Source: a virus (Duplodnaviria > Heunggongvirae > Uroviricota > Caudoviricetes). From it: 46,799 nt of DNA. The notes under the pieces are model-generated. The model saw only the letters and a list, made by a program, of their open reading frames with translations. It was not told where the DNA came from and did not search any database. The stretch is from IMG/VR virus record IMGVR_UViG_2597490154_000003; one strand, written 5' to 3'. This document shows positions 40,026 through 45,667 of this stretch, in pieces; position 1 is the first letter of the stretch; every line of letters starts with the position of its first letter. Made by a program: the position numbers and the translations under genes.

Positions 40026-40204
40026 CGCATCCTCACGATAATATCCGGGTAGGCGCGATCACTTTCGTCTACTCCGTTACAAAGCGAGGCTGGGTATTTC
40101 CCGGCCTTTCTGTTATCAGAAATCCACTGAAAGCACAGCGGCTGGCTGAGAAGATAAATAATAAACGGGAGGCGGTATGCACAAAGCATCTCCTGTTGAG
40201 TTAA
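40022..40204 (+). CDS. lambda orf60a-like protein
   Basis: track ORF 40016-40204; from [60 protein letters not shown] resembles remembered lambda orf60a. Confidence 0.55.
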
Positions 40205-40351
40205 GAACGAGTATTGAGATGGCACATAGCCTTGCTCAAATTGGAGTCAGGTTTGTGCCAATACCAGTAGAAACAGACGAAGAATTTCATACGTTAGCCA
40301 CATCCCTTTCACAAAAGCTGGAAATGATGGTGGCGAAAGCAGAAGCAGATG
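40177..40351 (+). pseudogene. lambda orf63-like gene truncated by IS911 insertion (last 7 codons displaced to 41602-41621)
   Basis: [58 protein letters not shown] then IS911 end; removing the IS and one ATG copy restores ...AEADERDQV-stop. Confidence 0.6.
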
Positions 40352-40381
40352 TGAAGTGGTCAACAAAAACTGGCCACCGAG

Positions 40382-41529
<1,148 letters not shown>

Positions 41530-41617
41530 TATGGCACCTGTGTTGTTCTGAGGTGAGCATATCACCTCTGTTCAGGTGGCCAAATTCAGTAAACCACTTC
41601 AATGAGAGAGACCAGGT

Positions 41618-41913: not shown

Positions 41914-42011
41914 ACATGAAAAGCAAAATCATCAGGGAGCTACAGGCTCCTTTTTTATTATTCGCATTCACCCTCAAGCGTATTAACCAACAATTCAGGG
42001 ATTAATGAAAG

Positions 42012-42233
42012 ATGGCGGACATCATTGATTCAGCATCAGAAATTGAAGAATTACAGCGCAATACAGCAATAAAAATGCGTCGTCTGAACTACCAGACTAT
42101 ATCCGCCACTCATTGTTGTGAGTGTGGCGATCCCATAGATGAACGAAGACGCCTGGTCGTTCAGGGTTGTCGGACTTGTGCAAGTTGCCAGGAGGATCTG
42201 GAGCTTATCAGTAAACAGAGAGGTTCGAAGTGA
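42012..42233 (+). CDS. zinc-finger protein, TraR/DksA-like
   Basis: 73 aa with CCECG...C..C..C four-Cys arrangement near C-terminus. Confidence 0.55.
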   Translation: MADIIDSASEIEELQRNTAIKMRRLNYQTISATHCCECGDPIDERRRLVVQGCRTCASCQEDLELISKQRGSK

Positions 42234-42994
42234 GCGAAATTAACTATCAGGCACTGCGTGAAGCGGCAGAAAAAGCAACGTGTGGTGAGTGGTCGCTCGA
42301 ATATGGAGAGAGCCGATTTGATGGTGATTATGCGCTAATTCATCGTGAAGTTGCTGGATATATTCCCATTTGCAGAATTGAAGGAGCGCATCCAGAAAGC
42401 GGTTTCGATGAAGATTTCCAAATGGAACAGCAGGCCAATGCTGAATTCATCGCCGCAGCCAATCCGGCTACTGTGCTGGCACTGCTGGATGAACGGGAAA
42501 GAAACCAGCAATACATAAAACGCCGCGACCAGGAGAACGAGGATATTGCTCTTACTGTTGGGAAGCTGAGAGTTGAGCTTGAGGAGACAAAATCAAAACT
42601 CAACGAGCAGCGTGAGTATTACGAAGGTGTTATCTCGGATGGGGGTAAGCGTATTGCTGAACTGGAGAAAAGCGAAGAGCAACTCATTAACGAGCGTGAC
42701 CATGCTGAATCTGCTTTAGCAGATATGTACTTTGCAGCAACCGGGGATGAGCCGGAGTGGAGCAACTGGTTCGGCTTTTCAGATGCTGTCGATGCCGTGG
42801 TTGACAGAATTGCTGATTTAGAAGCTAAACAGCCATCACCAGTAGTACCGGAAGGACTGGTTAAAGCAGTGCGCTTCTATGAACAGGTTAAGCGTGAAAA
42901 TCCACCAGTCGAAACAGAGGCATGGAAAGACGCTATTGACTGGGTGCTCAAAGAGTCTTGTCAGGCTGTAAACATTGATACCAATGGAGATTGA
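42230..42994 (+). CDS. Ea22-like protein
   Basis: 254 aa; N-terminus MSEINYQALREAAEKA and central LLDERERNQQYIKRRDQENEDIALTVGKLRVELEE..KSKLNEQREYYEGVISDG resemble remembered lambda Ea22; coiled-coil. Confidence 0.6.
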   Translation: MSEINYQALREAAEKATCGEWSLEYGESRFDGDYALIHREVAGYIPICRIEGAHPESGFDEDFQMEQQANAEFIAAANPATVLALLDERERNQQYIKRRDQENEDIALTVGKLRVELEETKSKLNEQREYYEGVISDGGKRIAELEKSEEQLINERDHAESALADMYFAATGDEPEWSNWFGFSDAVDAVVDRIADLEAKQPSPVVPEGLVKAVRFYEQVKRENPPVETEAWKDAIDWVLKESCQAVNIDTNGD

Positions 42995-42995
42995 T

Positions 42996-43250
42996 ATGAG
43001 CACTTTTACCGACAAAGAACTGATTAAAGAAATCAAAGAGCGTATCAGCAGTTTGGATGTGCGAGACAATGTTGAGCGCCGGGCTTATGAAATTGCTCTG
43101 GCATCGCTGGAAGAGAATCCGGTGGCATGGCTGCATTCAGACAATGGCTTAGGTATTCCGGCAATAACGAGGAGTAAAAACATTGCTGACAGTTGGTTAT
43201 CAAAGGGTTGGTATGTTCAGCCGCTATATATGCCAAGCCAGTGCCAGTAG
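42996..43250 (+). CDS. hypothetical protein
   Basis: internal ATG of track ORF 42975-43250 with GGAG RBS; N-terminal motif ERRAYEIALASLEEN echoes N-terminus of the 44009-44749 gene. Confidence 0.4.
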   Translation: MSTFTDKELIKEIKERISSLDVRDNVERRAYEIALASLEENPVAWLHSDNGLGIPAITRSKNIADSWLSKGWYVQPLYMPSQCQ

Positions 43251-43267
43251 TACCTGAAGAAAAACCA

Positions 43268-43801
43268 ATGCCTAACCCTCTTAGCATGTACGCGGTCGAT
43301 GCTGTTGCCGCTATTGCAGAGGTGAGAGGCTGGAACGCCTGCCGCGCGGCTATGCTTCATGCCGGAAACTTTCGGGAAAACGCGAATTCGTCAACCAATA
43401 ATTTTCGGGAAATTTCGGAAACGTCAACCAACTCTCCGGTAATTCCTGGTGAGGTGTTGTCCGCAATCCTGAAATTTGCCAGAGTTCGTGCTGATTTCGA
43501 TGATTTTGACGGCGACAGGCGAGGTATCGGTGATTGTCTGGATGAGGCTGAGCAAGAGCTTATCGTTACCATTAACAAATATGCCAGTCAGTTGGCAGCA
43601 GAACCGATAGCGACTAATGACGTTCGAGAGCAGCAGACAGCCGTTCCGCCAGTTCCTGTAATACAGGCTGATGTCGCGCAAGCAATTGAAAATCTCAGGC
43701 AGAAGTTAGTGGAATGCAATCGCTATAACTACTGCGCAGATGCAGTTAAGGGCGTAGAGGATGCCTGCCACGCTGCCATGCTTCAGGGAAAAAGAGAGTG
43801 A
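43268..43801 (+). CDS. hypothetical protein
   Basis: track ORF 43193-43801, start uncertain; contains NSPVIPGE motif encoded by an 18-nt stretch identical to one in the 44009-44749 gene. Confidence 0.4.
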   Translation: MPNPLSMYAVDAVAAIAEVRGWNACRAAMLHAGNFRENANSSTNNFREISETSTNSPVIPGEVLSAILKFARVRADFDDFDGDRRGIGDCLDEAEQELIVTINKYASQLAAEPIATNDVREQQTAVPPVPVIQADVAQAIENLRQKLVECNRYNYCADAVKGVEDACHAAMLQGKRE

Positions 43802-43802
43802 T

Positions 43803-44012
43803 ATGGCTATTGCCGCAAGTTACACCATGCATCTCTATTGTGATTGTCGCCAGTGTACGGAAGGTGTATATCCAGTGCCAGACTTCGGTGAGTATATCGG
43901 TACGTCATGGTCTGGTTGTGCAAAAGAGGCCCGTAAAGACGGGTGGCGAATAAGCAAAGACAAAACACGTACTTTTGCGCCCGGGCATAAAGTTTTGAGG
44001 ATTAACACATGA
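43803..44012 (+). CDS. hypothetical Cys-rich small protein
   Basis: internal ATG of track ORF 43761-44012; 69 aa MAIAASYTMHLYCDCRQCTEG...; CDC..C cluster. Confidence 0.4.
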   Translation: MAIAASYTMHLYCDCRQCTEGVYPVPDFGEYIGTSWSGCAKEARKDGWRISKDKTRTFAPGHKVLRINT

Positions 44013-44749
44013 CCACTATTACCAAAGAACGTATTGAATTGTTCATTAAAAATCCGCTTGAAAACGGGCTTACTCGTGGCGAACAAATGGAACTAGCACG
44101 AATTGCACTGGCATCACTGGAACGCGAACAGATTCGCCACGAGCATGCCAAATGGTCTGACTCCACATTTGGCTGCGTTGGCCCCATTGGTCCACTGAAA
44201 CACCTCTCAAAAGAGGCACTGGAAGCCGCAGCCGAACCAGACGATCTTAGCGAGTGGGCTGATATGCAGTTTCTGTTGTGGGATGCACAGCGCCGTGCTG
44301 GCATCAGCGATGCTGAAATTACCGTTGCTATGGAAGATAAATTGAAGATCAACATGGAGCGCCAGTGGCCTGAGCCAAAAGATGGTGAGCCTCGCTTGCA
44401 CATTAAAGAACCCGGCAACTCTCCGGTAATTCCGGATGGTTTATCCACGGTATGCGCTGAGGCTTATCAGGTTGTAGGAGTTATGGCAGATGCGCTTGGT
44501 GTATTCGGTGATGCAGCAGTACAGAAAGTTCTGGATAACCTGTCACAGCAAAAACTTGTTCACAGAGATGTGCTGCCGTTCTCGCTTCCGGTAACTCCGG
44601 ATGGTTGGGTTATGGTTCCTAAACAGGTAACGCCGGAAATCAGCAACGCGATAAACGTTGTGGGTCAACGCTGTACATGCGGAAATTGCTCTCAGCGGTT
44701 GTGGGATTTATTACTCGACGCCACACAGCAAGGAGTTAACCGTGGCTAA
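44009..44749 (+). CDS. hypothetical protein (paralogous to 42996-43250 plus 43268-43801 module)
   Basis: 246 aa; RBS GAGGAT; N-terminal ELARIALASLEREQ and internal NSPVIPDG motifs shared with the two upstream genes. Confidence 0.5.
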   Translation: MTTITKERIELFIKNPLENGLTRGEQMELARIALASLEREQIRHEHAKWSDSTFGCVGPIGPLKHLSKEALEAAAEPDDLSEWADMQFLLWDAQRRAGISDAEITVAMEDKLKINMERQWPEPKDGEPRLHIKEPGNSPVIPDGLSTVCAEAYQVVGVMADALGVFGDAAVQKVLDNLSQQKLVHRDVLPFSLPVTPDGWVMVPKQVTPEISNAINVVGQRCTCGNCSQRLWDLLLDATQQGVNRG

Positions 44750-45026
44750 CCTGCAACTTGCCGTTAAAGGTGAATACTTCGATGCCATGATTCGCGGAGA
44801 GAAAACGGAAGAGTATCGCCTGTGTAATGACTACTGGAAAAAGCGCCTCGTTAACCGTAAGCATGACCGCCTGATTATCACAAAGGGATATCCGAAGCGC
44901 GACGATTCCAGCCGCAGAGTTGATGTTCCGTATGACGGATATGAAGTGAAGACAATCACACATCCGCACTTCGGTGATAAACCGGTAAAGGTATACGCGA
45001 TAAAGGTAAATATCGGCACTGAATAA
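44742..45026 (+). CDS. hypothetical protein
   Basis: GTG at 44742 with AAGGAG RBS, in frame within track ORF 44658-45026; overlaps previous stop by 8 nt. Confidence 0.45.
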   Translation: MANLQLAVKGEYFDAMIRGEKTEEYRLCNDYWKKRLVNRKHDRLIITKGYPKRDDSSRRVDVPYDGYEVKTITHPHFGDKPVKVYAIKVNIGTE

Positions 45027-45051
45027 CAATCCGCACAACACAAGGTCAAGA

Positions 45052-45291
45052 ATGTTCAGAGTGATTTACCCTAACACCTGGTACGTCGACCACCACGGCA
45101 CTCCCTGCAAAATCCTGCGTTCCACTCACAACAAAGTTCACTACATCCGAAAAGGCAGAACATGTATCGCCAGCATGTTCCGCTTTAATCATGACTTTGA
45201 ACCTGTGAATAAAGCTGACGCAGATCGGATAGCTGAAGAGATCGAAACAGCAGAACACATTAAGAAGTTACGTGCCATACGCAGGAAATAG
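45052..45291 (+). CDS. hypothetical protein
   Basis: 79-aa ORF upstream of xis, same strand as early-left operon. Confidence 0.4.
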   Translation: MFRVIYPNTWYVDHHGTPCKILRSTHNKVHYIRKGRTCIASMFRFNHDFEPVNKADADRIAEEIETAEHIKKLRAIRRK

Positions 45292-45430
45292 AAAAATTGA
45301 TAAATTCAATACTGCATTTCTCAGCATTAAATTTATCTCTATGACCAGTCAAGAGATGTACCTGCCATGAGCTTAATATCATGTCAGATATATCGGTCAC
45401 AAACTCCCTCAGCAGCTAAGAGGAGGACAA

Positions 45431-45667
45431 ATGTCTCGACTAATCACTTTACAGGACTGGGCTAAAGAAGAATTTGGGGACTTAGCACCAAGTGAGCGAG
45501 TTCTGAAAAAATACGCGCAAGGGAAAATGATGGCCCCACCCGCTATAAAAGTTGGTCGCTACTGGATGATTGACCGAAATTCCCGTTTTGTAGGAACGCT
45601 TGCAGAACCGCAACTCCCAATAAACGCAAACCCAAAACTCCAACGGATAATCGCTGATGGCTGCTAG
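45431..45667 (+). CDS. xis: excisionase-like protein
   Basis: 78 aa directly upstream of and overlapping int; strong RBS AAGAGGAGGA; basic protein; assignment mainly by position and size. Confidence 0.6.
   Translation: MSRLITLQDWAKEEFGDLAPSERVLKKYAQGKMMAPPAIKVGRYWMIDRNSRFVGTLAEPQLPINANPKLQRIIADGC

Follow-up and report, generated by a model that had tools for sequence, protein, structure and literature searches.

Short conserved in-frame junctions between modules of the ea genes in a lambdoid phage

The virus record IMGVR_UViG_2597490154_000003 of IMG/VR (Caudoviricetes) is a stretch of 46,799 nt, referred to below in its whole length as the window, and represents a lambdoid prophage or phage. 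In its exo-xis ('ea') region, bordered by RecT-like and exonuclease genes on one side and by xis and int on the other, an 18-nt sequence, CAACTCTCCGGTAATTCC, is present in exactly two copies, at 43429-43446 and 44416-44433 of the plus strand, each in a different open reading frame (ORF). How did two genes of this region come to share it? A preliminary description, based on the sequence alone, distinguished here the ORFs 42996-43250, 43268-43801 and 44009-44749, all of which were found again together with both copies of the 18-mer; it took the last of them, coding for 246 aa, for a paralogous fusion of the two genes upstream and the 18-mer for a sign of recent duplication or gene conversion. 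The comparisons presented below point to another answer. The 18-mer is the core of an in-frame junction of approximately 28-30 nt, here named J3, whose peptide can be described as a short Pro-rich interdomain linker in hypermosaic ea genes of the EaA, Ea22, DUF550 and DUF551 type, carried by temperate phages of Enterobacterales. Such short conserved in-frame junctions are probably sites of homologous recombination by which the modules of ea genes are shuffled, a reading to which we assign a probability of about 0.72.

The junctions and the modules that they join

Both copies of the 18-mer lie in the frame of their own ORF, where they are read as N-S-P-V-I-P, and as they are spaced by 987 nt (3 x 329 codons) they also share the same absolute reading frame. 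A pattern search of the whole 46.8-kb window with up to 3 mismatches allowed returned the same two copies only. In dinucleotide-preserving shuffles the mean number of such matches was 0.03 and none of the 100 shuffles gave two or more, while by our own arithmetic about 0.016 repeated 18-mer pairs are expected in 46.8 kb, so the likelihood of mere coincidence is practically nil. The J3 consensus is GGC AAC TCT CCG GTA ATT CCG GAT GGT TGG, encoding G-N-S-P-V-I-P-D-G-W, and three copies of it are present on the plus strand of the window. The first, identified by repeat and pattern searches, comprises the exact 18-mer (43429-43446, NSPVIP) and stands in the upstream composite gene between a spacer, ...NNFREISETST, and a module, EVLSAILKFARV...; its similarity to the second copy reaches position 43451 (23 nt, 91%). 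The second, at 44414-44441 (GGCAACTCTCCGGTAATTCCGGATGGTT, G-NSPVIP-DG(L)), contains the other 18-mer and follows straight after a DUF550 domain; the junction of approximately 28 nt is written GGCAACTCTCCGGTAATTCCGGATGGTT(GG) and encodes G-NSPVIP-DGW. The third, missed by the preliminary description and found in the repeat search, is a variant at 44587-44608 (TCCGGTAACTCCGGATGGTTGG, PVTPDGW), within which the repeat TCCGGTAACTCCGGATGGTT (44587-44606) is 95% identical to 44422-44441. It can be added that an imperfect 33-nt tandem duplication (43367-43431, NFRENANSSTN / NFREISETSTN, 78% identical) abuts the first 18-mer, and that the same spacer, GNFRENKNSSTNNFREI(A/S)ETST, precedes NSPVIP in related phages.

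The 246-aa composite gene (44009-44749, plus strand), as delimited by the ORF call, Pfam and its homologues, consists in order of a leader (44009-44100), the junction J1, the DUF550 domain, J3, a cassette, the J3 variant and a C-terminal module, VMVPKQVTPEISNAI...QQGVNRG. DUF550 (PF04447, dATP/dGTP pyrophosphohydrolase) occupies aa 42-137 (44132-44419) and matches positions 1-96 of the 97 of the profile with E = 8.2e-42 (141.8 bits, the cut-off being 23). The activity is predicted from the family, and this family annotation is the one indication of a role that could be attached to the proteins discussed here. The DUF550 envelope ends at residue 137, the Asn of NSPVIP, and DUF551 (PF04448) envelopes begin at GW, two residues past the Pro of that motif. 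Pfam gave no DUF551 match in the 246-aa protein of the window, in which the last module follows the third copy of J3; in most close homologues DUF551 is found in that place. The homologues are nearly invariant from IALASLE to PVTPDGW; they differ in the leader and most strongly in the last module, where as a rule one of many DUF551 variants is found. Their matches cover 82% of the query at 98-99% identity and diverge after the third J3 copy. As to DUF551 following PVTPDGW, its ends are conserved (WISCSERMP ... THWMPLPEPPQE) and its interior is hypervariable in length and sequence, also between proteins otherwise 98-99% identical; this looks like a second level of cassette-like variation, inside the domain.

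Between the second and third J3 copies, which are direct and whose starts are 165 nt (55 codons) apart, lies a segment of approximately 48 codons (44442-44586, plus strand, LSTVCAEAYQ...VLPFSL). It is absent from Phi05_1387 B, where DUF550 joins straight to GNSPVTPDGWISCSERMP. Since DUF550 is there fused directly to GNSPVTPDGW-DUF551, the segment behaves as a cassette between direct copies of the junction. At another IMG/VR locus the same cassette is found behind a different upstream module.

Two further junctions were distinguished, their peptides being IALASLE(AEPVAW) for J1 and QP(A/S/V)PVVPE for J2, next to GNSPV(I/T)PDGW for J3. The two copies of J1 in the window, both on the plus strand, are AATTGCTCTGGCATCGCTGGAA (43091-43112), where the N-terminal leader of the upstream composite gene ends, and AATTGCACTGGCATCACTGGAA (44101-44122), between the leader (aa 1-31) and DUF550 of the 246-aa gene. 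They match at 20 of 22 nt (IALASLE in both), and the N-terminal echo between these genes that had been noticed earlier is therefore real. J2 is likewise present in two plus-strand copies, 405 nt (135 codons) apart: AGCCATCACCAGTAGTACCGGAAG (42831-42854, QPSPVVPEG) lies between the coiled-coil part and the C-terminal module of the Ead/Ea22-like gene, and AGCCAGTGCCAGTAGTACCTGAAG (43236-43259, KPVPVVPEE) is read in one frame with the downstream half of the composite gene, which is broken. The PVVPE repeat had previously been overlooked, as had a module-end motif, AC(R/H)AAML, whose copies, GCCTGCCGCGCGGCTATGCTTCA (43337-43359, ACRAAMLH) and GCCTGCCACGCTGCCATGCTTCA (43763-43785, ACHAAMLQ), were detected on the plus strand by the repeat search.

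The upstream composite gene (42996-43801, plus strand) carries in its 5' part a leader, J1, the module PVAWLHSDNG...VQPLY and J2, and in its 3' part the module KPMPNPLSMYAVDAV...WNACRAAML, the NFRE spacer, J3 and the module EVLSAI...ACHAAMLQGKRE. The Ead/Ea22-like gene (42230-42994), where J2 precedes the C-terminal module, draws on the same module pool. The genes across 42230-44749 are strings of unrelated modules joined by J1, J2 and J3. In other phages '(W)NACRAAMLQ' is the commonest end of the modules that precede J3; the composite ORFs with J3 range from 76 to 424 aa and resemble 'beads on a string', typically in the order leader, IALASLE..PVAW, module, ..LY..QPAPVVPE, module ending in ..WNACRAAMLQ, GNSPVIPDGW, and DUF551 or another module.

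Conservation of the junction DNA and the position of breakpoints

The exact 18-mer was found in at least 120 IMG/VR contigs; the results given in this paragraph refer to the matches listed, every one of which lies in the NSPVIP frame, usually in the context G-NSPVIP-(D/E/G)-G-(W/Y). For 113 listed occurrences the flanks (150 nt on each side, the adjacent 30 nt being skipped) were grouped into nucleotide clusters, which yielded at least 30 upstream and at least 37 downstream clusters in at least 58 combinations. At least 8 upstream types are joined to two or more downstream types, and at least 12 downstream types to two or more upstream types. Conservation extends beyond the 18-mer by approximately 2-5 nt upstream and 10 nt downstream and then falls to background, the block of conserved columns being approximately GG-CAACTCTCCGGTAATTCC-GGATGGTTGG.

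IMG/VR was also scanned with the degenerate pattern GGNAAYTCNCCNGTNATHCCNGAYGG, in which all synonymous positions are free, and at least 120 stretches were found. Among the 120 listed, 58 carry the exact 18-mer and 62 do not; in 39 of these 62 the sole difference is GTA to GTG, and the others depart from it at one to three synonymous nucleotides, mostly one or two. If codons are drawn as they are used in the flanking ORFs, identity of two independent encodings is expected with P = 2e-4; among the 797 listed pairs that share no 11-mer in either flank, 29% are identical and 88% are at most 2 nt apart. For those DUF550-bearing instances in which the adjacent 120 nt are down to 77% nucleotide identity, with 47% at third positions, identity in the junction is 96%, with 87% at third positions. 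These figures argue that the junction is conserved at the DNA level, beyond what the encoded peptide explains. Extra NSPVIP-type linkers inside the first 120 listed loci, sought as an unselected sample of codons, amounted to almost none.

Species representatives of, among others, Enterobacter, Trabulsiella, Brenneria, Erwinia and Scandinavium carry the same codons, and the 30-mer consensus is present exactly in 420 of 5426 complete Escherichia coli genomes. Modules of the region also occur in P1-like phage-plasmids (e.g., P7 upf89.5, D6; RCS47) and at 598 places on E. coli plasmids, hence the pool extends beyond lambdoid and P22-like phages. A DUF550-GNSPVIPDGW-module segment was also noted in Chryseobacterium sp. 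18061 (CACSKA010000005.1), a member of Bacteroidota, and the protein flanking it is nearly identical to that of Scandinavium hiltneri, of the family Enterobacteriaceae, which points to contamination of the assembly or a very recent transfer.

The positions at which similarity begins and ends were determined by a megablast comparison of 42900-44800 with 50,697 GenBank phage records. Matches were found in 393 records, in only 3 of them with a query coverage of at least 80%, and the partial matches start and stop at junction repeats or gene borders. Thus, aligned segments are bounded by NSPVIPDG (43996-44441), by PVTPDGW (43994-44608), by the end of the 18-mer (43342-43446), by IALASLE (42996 to 43117-43130 and, in P22-like phages, 43995 to 44118-44122) and by PVVPE (43238/43244 onward), and other alignments stop at 43243/43257, in the second copy of J2. 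Within 3 nt of a junction repeat or a gene boundary lie 28 of the 31 endpoints, these targets making up 19% of the query (binomial P = 2e-17); for the intragenic junctions alone the count is 17 of 31 endpoints against 13% of the query (P = 5e-8). The endpoints are phylogenetically non-independent and both P values are indicative only.

At base level, identity to Phi05_1387 B (99.6%), Stx1a_EH2115 (98.2%) and Stx1_1649 extends across the junction and collapses just past CCGGAT(G/A)GTT of the junction, and beyond the 3' edge of the junction it falls to random in all three phages. For Phi05_1387 B it stops at 44441 and for Stx1a_EH2115 at 44608, and the alignment with Stx1_1649 ends within and just past the 18-mer, with one mismatch inside. 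At the position of CCGGAT(G/A)GTT the first J3 copy of the window itself reads CCTGGTGAGG.

J1 and J2 behave as J3 does. With J1 (ATTGCNCTGGCATCNCTGGAA), at least 6 types of leader are combined with more than 20 downstream modules, and its products include the leader type of the 84-aa ORF fused to DUF550. J2 (AGCCANNNCCAGTAGTACCNGAAG) joins the left part of Ea22 either to GLVKAVRFYEQ..., as in the window, or straight to EKPMPNPLSMYAVDAV..., a module which in the window is located in the next gene. The latter, direct joining was found at more than 20 loci and is the product expected from recombination between the two J2 copies of the window.

Recombination at the junctions and rival explanations

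The mechanism proposed, as the most economical one, is homologous recombination within short identical stretches of the junctions. Its agents could be the phage's own RecT-like/Exo pair, encoded just upstream, or the host RecA; exchange could take place between co-resident prophages, between a prophage and an infecting phage, or between copies inside one genome, and modules would be swapped, inserted or deleted in frame. Repeated crossovers in the junction would leave its DNA near-identical across phages, synonymous sites included, between unrelated flanks. Rad52-like phage recombinases favour short or diverged homologies in exchanges between phages and (defective) prophages (PMC3945230), and homologous recombination directed at short boundary sequences that are conserved is an established model of phage mosaicism (PMC3233612).

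Several points weigh against this reading. Since possession of the exact 18-mer defined the first IMG/VR set, conservation of these 18 nt is there by construction, the degenerate scan and the flank analyses being the unbiased parts. The contigs are phylogenetically non-independent, and the counts therefore overstate the number of independent events. The position of the crossovers inside the junction is inferred from comparative breakpoints, and the enzymes named for them are candidates. With its 26-30 nt, the junction barely reaches, or falls short of, the homology commonly required for efficient RecA-dependent exchange. A constraint at the level of the peptide is also present, so part of the conservation would be unrelated to recombination. 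Finally, the AlphaFold2 model of the 246-aa protein, built on an alignment of 28 sequences, has a mean pLDDT of 40.7 and a pTM of 0.22 and cannot confirm an unstructured linker; its linker regions are modelled as coil, which at this low confidence supports no claim. A sequence search of PDB gave no match at E <= 1.

A local duplication or gene conversion, with the 246-aa gene as a paralogous fusion and the 18-mer as its best-preserved remnant, would account for a pair of exact copies that agree in orientation and frame at a distance of 987 nt, for the second shared motif, IALASLE, collinear in both genes, and for the match of all three genes to the broad PHROG family phrog_60. However, similarity is confined to short motifs. 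A self-comparison for repeats returned repeats of 12-32 nt only, and the only alignments that BLASTP gave among the three ORFs were those of IALASLE (E = 0.079) and NSPVIP (E = 0.23). No part of the module bodies aligned; these are of different families, the 246-aa protein containing DUF550 and the upstream ORFs having no Pfam match. The global alignment of the two N-terminal leaders is marginal (z = 2.1, shuffle p = 0.035), for which reason their homology is not claimed. What likeness there is between the 246-aa gene and the upstream gene comes solely from the presence of J1 and J3 in both, and their modules are not homologous; since more than 120 phage contigs carry the same 18-mer amid dozens of unrelated flanks, it is not private to one genome and its two copies here need no local duplication. 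A paralogous fusion, or a recent duplication of a gene module, is on this evidence very improbable. The suggestion that the identity reflects recombination in a hypervariable accessory region holds good, but what recombines would be a population-wide junction, and no event private to this genome is called for.

Another explanation is that the junction is kept purely as a peptide (a hinge, docking or processing motif), the mosaics being formed by illegitimate recombination and selection for intact domains; the identity of the DNA would then be a by-product of recent common ancestry and the crossovers would lie elsewhere. The motif is indeed always in one frame and exactly between domain envelopes, the residues behind it (D/E-G-W/Y) are already part of the beginning of the following domain, and many mosaic joints of phages are without conserved boundary sequences and are ascribed to selection after illegitimate recombination (PMC3233612). 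Nevertheless, conservation of the synonymous sites goes far beyond what a constraint on the peptide or a bias in codon use permits and is higher than in the adjacent conserved enzyme domain, and illegitimate joining would not put the breakpoints of both sides in the same 28 nt or so across approximately 58 listed combinations. Pure peptide constraint combined with illegitimate recombination is disfavoured by the synonymous sites and seems an unlikely explanation of the whole pattern, though it may contribute to it. Conservation at the DNA level would also be expected of a nucleic-acid cis element within the coding sequence, for instance a site bound by a protein, a structured RNA or the target of a dedicated, shufflon-like site-specific recombinase, and the core of the junction has the form CCGG-N5-CCGG, which could fold into a small hairpin. 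Against this, no Rfam family was found in 42000-45400 at E <= 1, and all copies are direct, in one frame and inside ORFs, whereas the repeats of a shufflon are inverted. Integrase and excisionase are the only site-specific recombinases nearby, and the junction is found in lambdoid, P22-like and P1/P7/D6-like phages, which have different sets of recombinases, so that a cis element of this kind is exceedingly improbable.

Starting from recombination at the junctions, one may go further and see in J1, J2 and J3 more than the passive traces of exchange, namely a maintained 'socket' system whose DNA identity would be preserved since it enables temperate phages of Enterobacterales to build, in frame and from a common pool, new early accessory proteins of several domains. 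We offer this extension as a tentative idea that is rather doubtful at present. If it were true, the dozens of modules in co-resident prophages would form a natural combinatorial library for domain shuffling, possibly serving host takeover or counter-defence.

Relation to known systems and other features of the locus

Conserved 'boundary' or 'linker' sequences in the modular evolution of lambdoid phages have reportedly been described by Susskind and Botstein in 1978 and, for HK620, by Clark et al. in 2001. Like these, the junctions are short conserved DNA at mosaic borders with non-homologous flanks and can be proposed as foci of recombination: the conserved stretch has unrelated sequences on both sides, the breakpoints coincide with it and its conservation is more than the peptide accounts for. 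Unlike the classical boundary sequences, which lie between genes or modules, they are intragenic and in frame, encode interdomain linkers and reassort domains. The His-boxes and glycine islands of gp37 and gp38 in T-even phages are said to have been recognized as recombination motifs by Tetart, Desplats and Krisch in 1998; in these tail-fibre adhesins, too, in-frame short motifs part hypervariable segments and swaps keep the reading frame, but a single homologous family is concerned and its role in host range is known, whereas here unrelated modules of early accessory genes are found on both sides. In polymorphic toxins the motifs VENN (CdiA) and PxxxxDPxGL (Rhs) mark the point at which variable C-terminal modules are exchanged with stored cassettes by homologous recombination. 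A short conserved peptide and its DNA at the exchange point are common to both systems; in the toxin systems one side is a long constant delivery region and the variable part a toxin with its immunity gene, while in the ea genes both sides vary and no signature of a toxin or immunity gene was seen. A shufflon has inverted repeats and a dedicated recombinase, in contrast to the direct in-frame copies described here, next to which Int and Xis are the only site-specific recombination proteins among the neighbouring ORFs.

The ea22 genes are known to be mosaic, with a common N-terminal coiled-coil and unrelated C-terminal domains, including DUF551 as a 'portable domain', according to PMC10834534, PMC7093339 and PMC8614690. 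Ea22 of lambda and Stx phages comes from the same genomic region and protein pool as the genes of the window. The passages retrieved from these three papers on ea22 and the exo-xis region describe, for a few dozen phages, how the proteins resemble one another in blocks, and contain no description of the present junctions, of conserved junction DNA, of the conservation of its codons or of its combinatorial reach. No report of NSPVIP in a phage context was found in a literature search that did not extend to Clark et al. 2001. The mosaicism of ea22, the portability of DUF551 and the concept of boundary sequences are thus already known, and what is new is a well-documented example of the boundary-sequence idea, neither a duplicated gene module nor a new class of element. 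Mosaicism has been explained by two rival models (PMC3233612), one in which recombination is aimed at short sequences that are conserved and one in which selection acts on random illegitimate joinings, and for the first of them the region provides a case that is unusually clean, abundant and quantifiable. Since the junctions are intragenic at domain boundaries, are defined to approximately 28 nt and occur in hundreds of E. coli genomes, that model is directly testable. Junction mosaicism also explains why profile families such as phrog_60 lump unrelated proteins, and likeness between neighbouring ea genes should not be taken as paralogy.

The two 'upstream genes' of the preliminary description, 42996-43250 (84 aa) and 43268-43801 (177 aa, its frame being open back to 43193), are the halves of one gene, broken by a 1-nt deletion that had been overlooked and now a pseudogene or split gene, as judged from ORF calls, relatives and the annotation by PGAP. 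Where the window reads CTATATAT^GCC (at 43224-43234, the gap lying between 43231 and 43232), seven related loci read CTATATATAGCC, with one extra A and a continuous ORF, ...VQPLYIAKPVPVVPD..., which runs into further modules; restoring the missing base yields a 268-aa protein. The deleted allele is 100% identical in approximately 90 complete E. coli genomes, including CFT073, ATCC 25922 and ABU 83972, and the equivalent in CFT073 is labelled by PGAP as 'frameshifted; incomplete'; the same arrangement is intact at one IMG/VR locus. A programmed ribosomal frameshift was considered and rejected, CTATATAT^GCC containing no X XXY YYZ heptamer and the seven relatives being uninterrupted, and so was a sequencing error, given the identical allele in those genomes and in two phage records. 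Junction mosaicism likewise explains genes that are split or mislabelled by annotation pipelines such as PGAP. In CFT073 (NC_004431 1400181-1403986) the DUF550 gene was divided by PGAP into a 'partial hypothetical protein', which extends from the leader to approximately 12 nt beyond the IALASLE junction, and a shorter DUF550 coding sequence, the homology-based annotation having been misled by the mosaic junctions. In the same strain an IS21-like element, ISEc10, interrupts the Ea22-like gene.

The segment 42900-44800 is 100% identical to Escherichia phage ev017 (NC_049948, Jouyvirus) and to PhiR57_1. Pfam identified a TraR/DksA zinc finger (42012-42233), the Ead/Ea22-like gene on the plus strand (PF13935, E = 4e-40; neither the repaired upstream gene nor the 246-aa gene matches this family), a weakly matching ASCH domain (44742-45026), DUF4222 (45052-45291) and an excisionase (45431-45667). 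NCBIfam had no family for the 246-aa, 69-aa or ASCH-like proteins, and in PHROGs the proteins of the region gave many partial matches, all of 'unknown function'. An IS3-family insertion sequence was recognized on the minus strand at 40382-41565 (NCBIfam transpos_IS3), with orfA at 41227-41565 and orfB at 40382-41200 (transpos_IS3, E = 3.8e-90). It is located between the small genes of the exo side and an orf61-like gene and overlaps into the ORF 40177-40506. The annotation of ev017 shows no insertion sequence at this position, only a short DUF1382 gene, and the window is therefore not identical to ev017 over its full length.

It is also worth mentioning that AAGGAG is present in the final codons of the 246-aa gene (...QQGVNRG*, 44722-44749), that the ASCH-like gene begins behind it with GTG (44742), and that many modules in other phages end in ...PQEVK(GE)* or ...VNRG*. 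The conserved tails of these proteins probably double as the ribosome-binding site of the next gene, which may explain the '+GE' C-terminal motif reported, with no explanation so far, for Ea22 proteins in PMC7093339.

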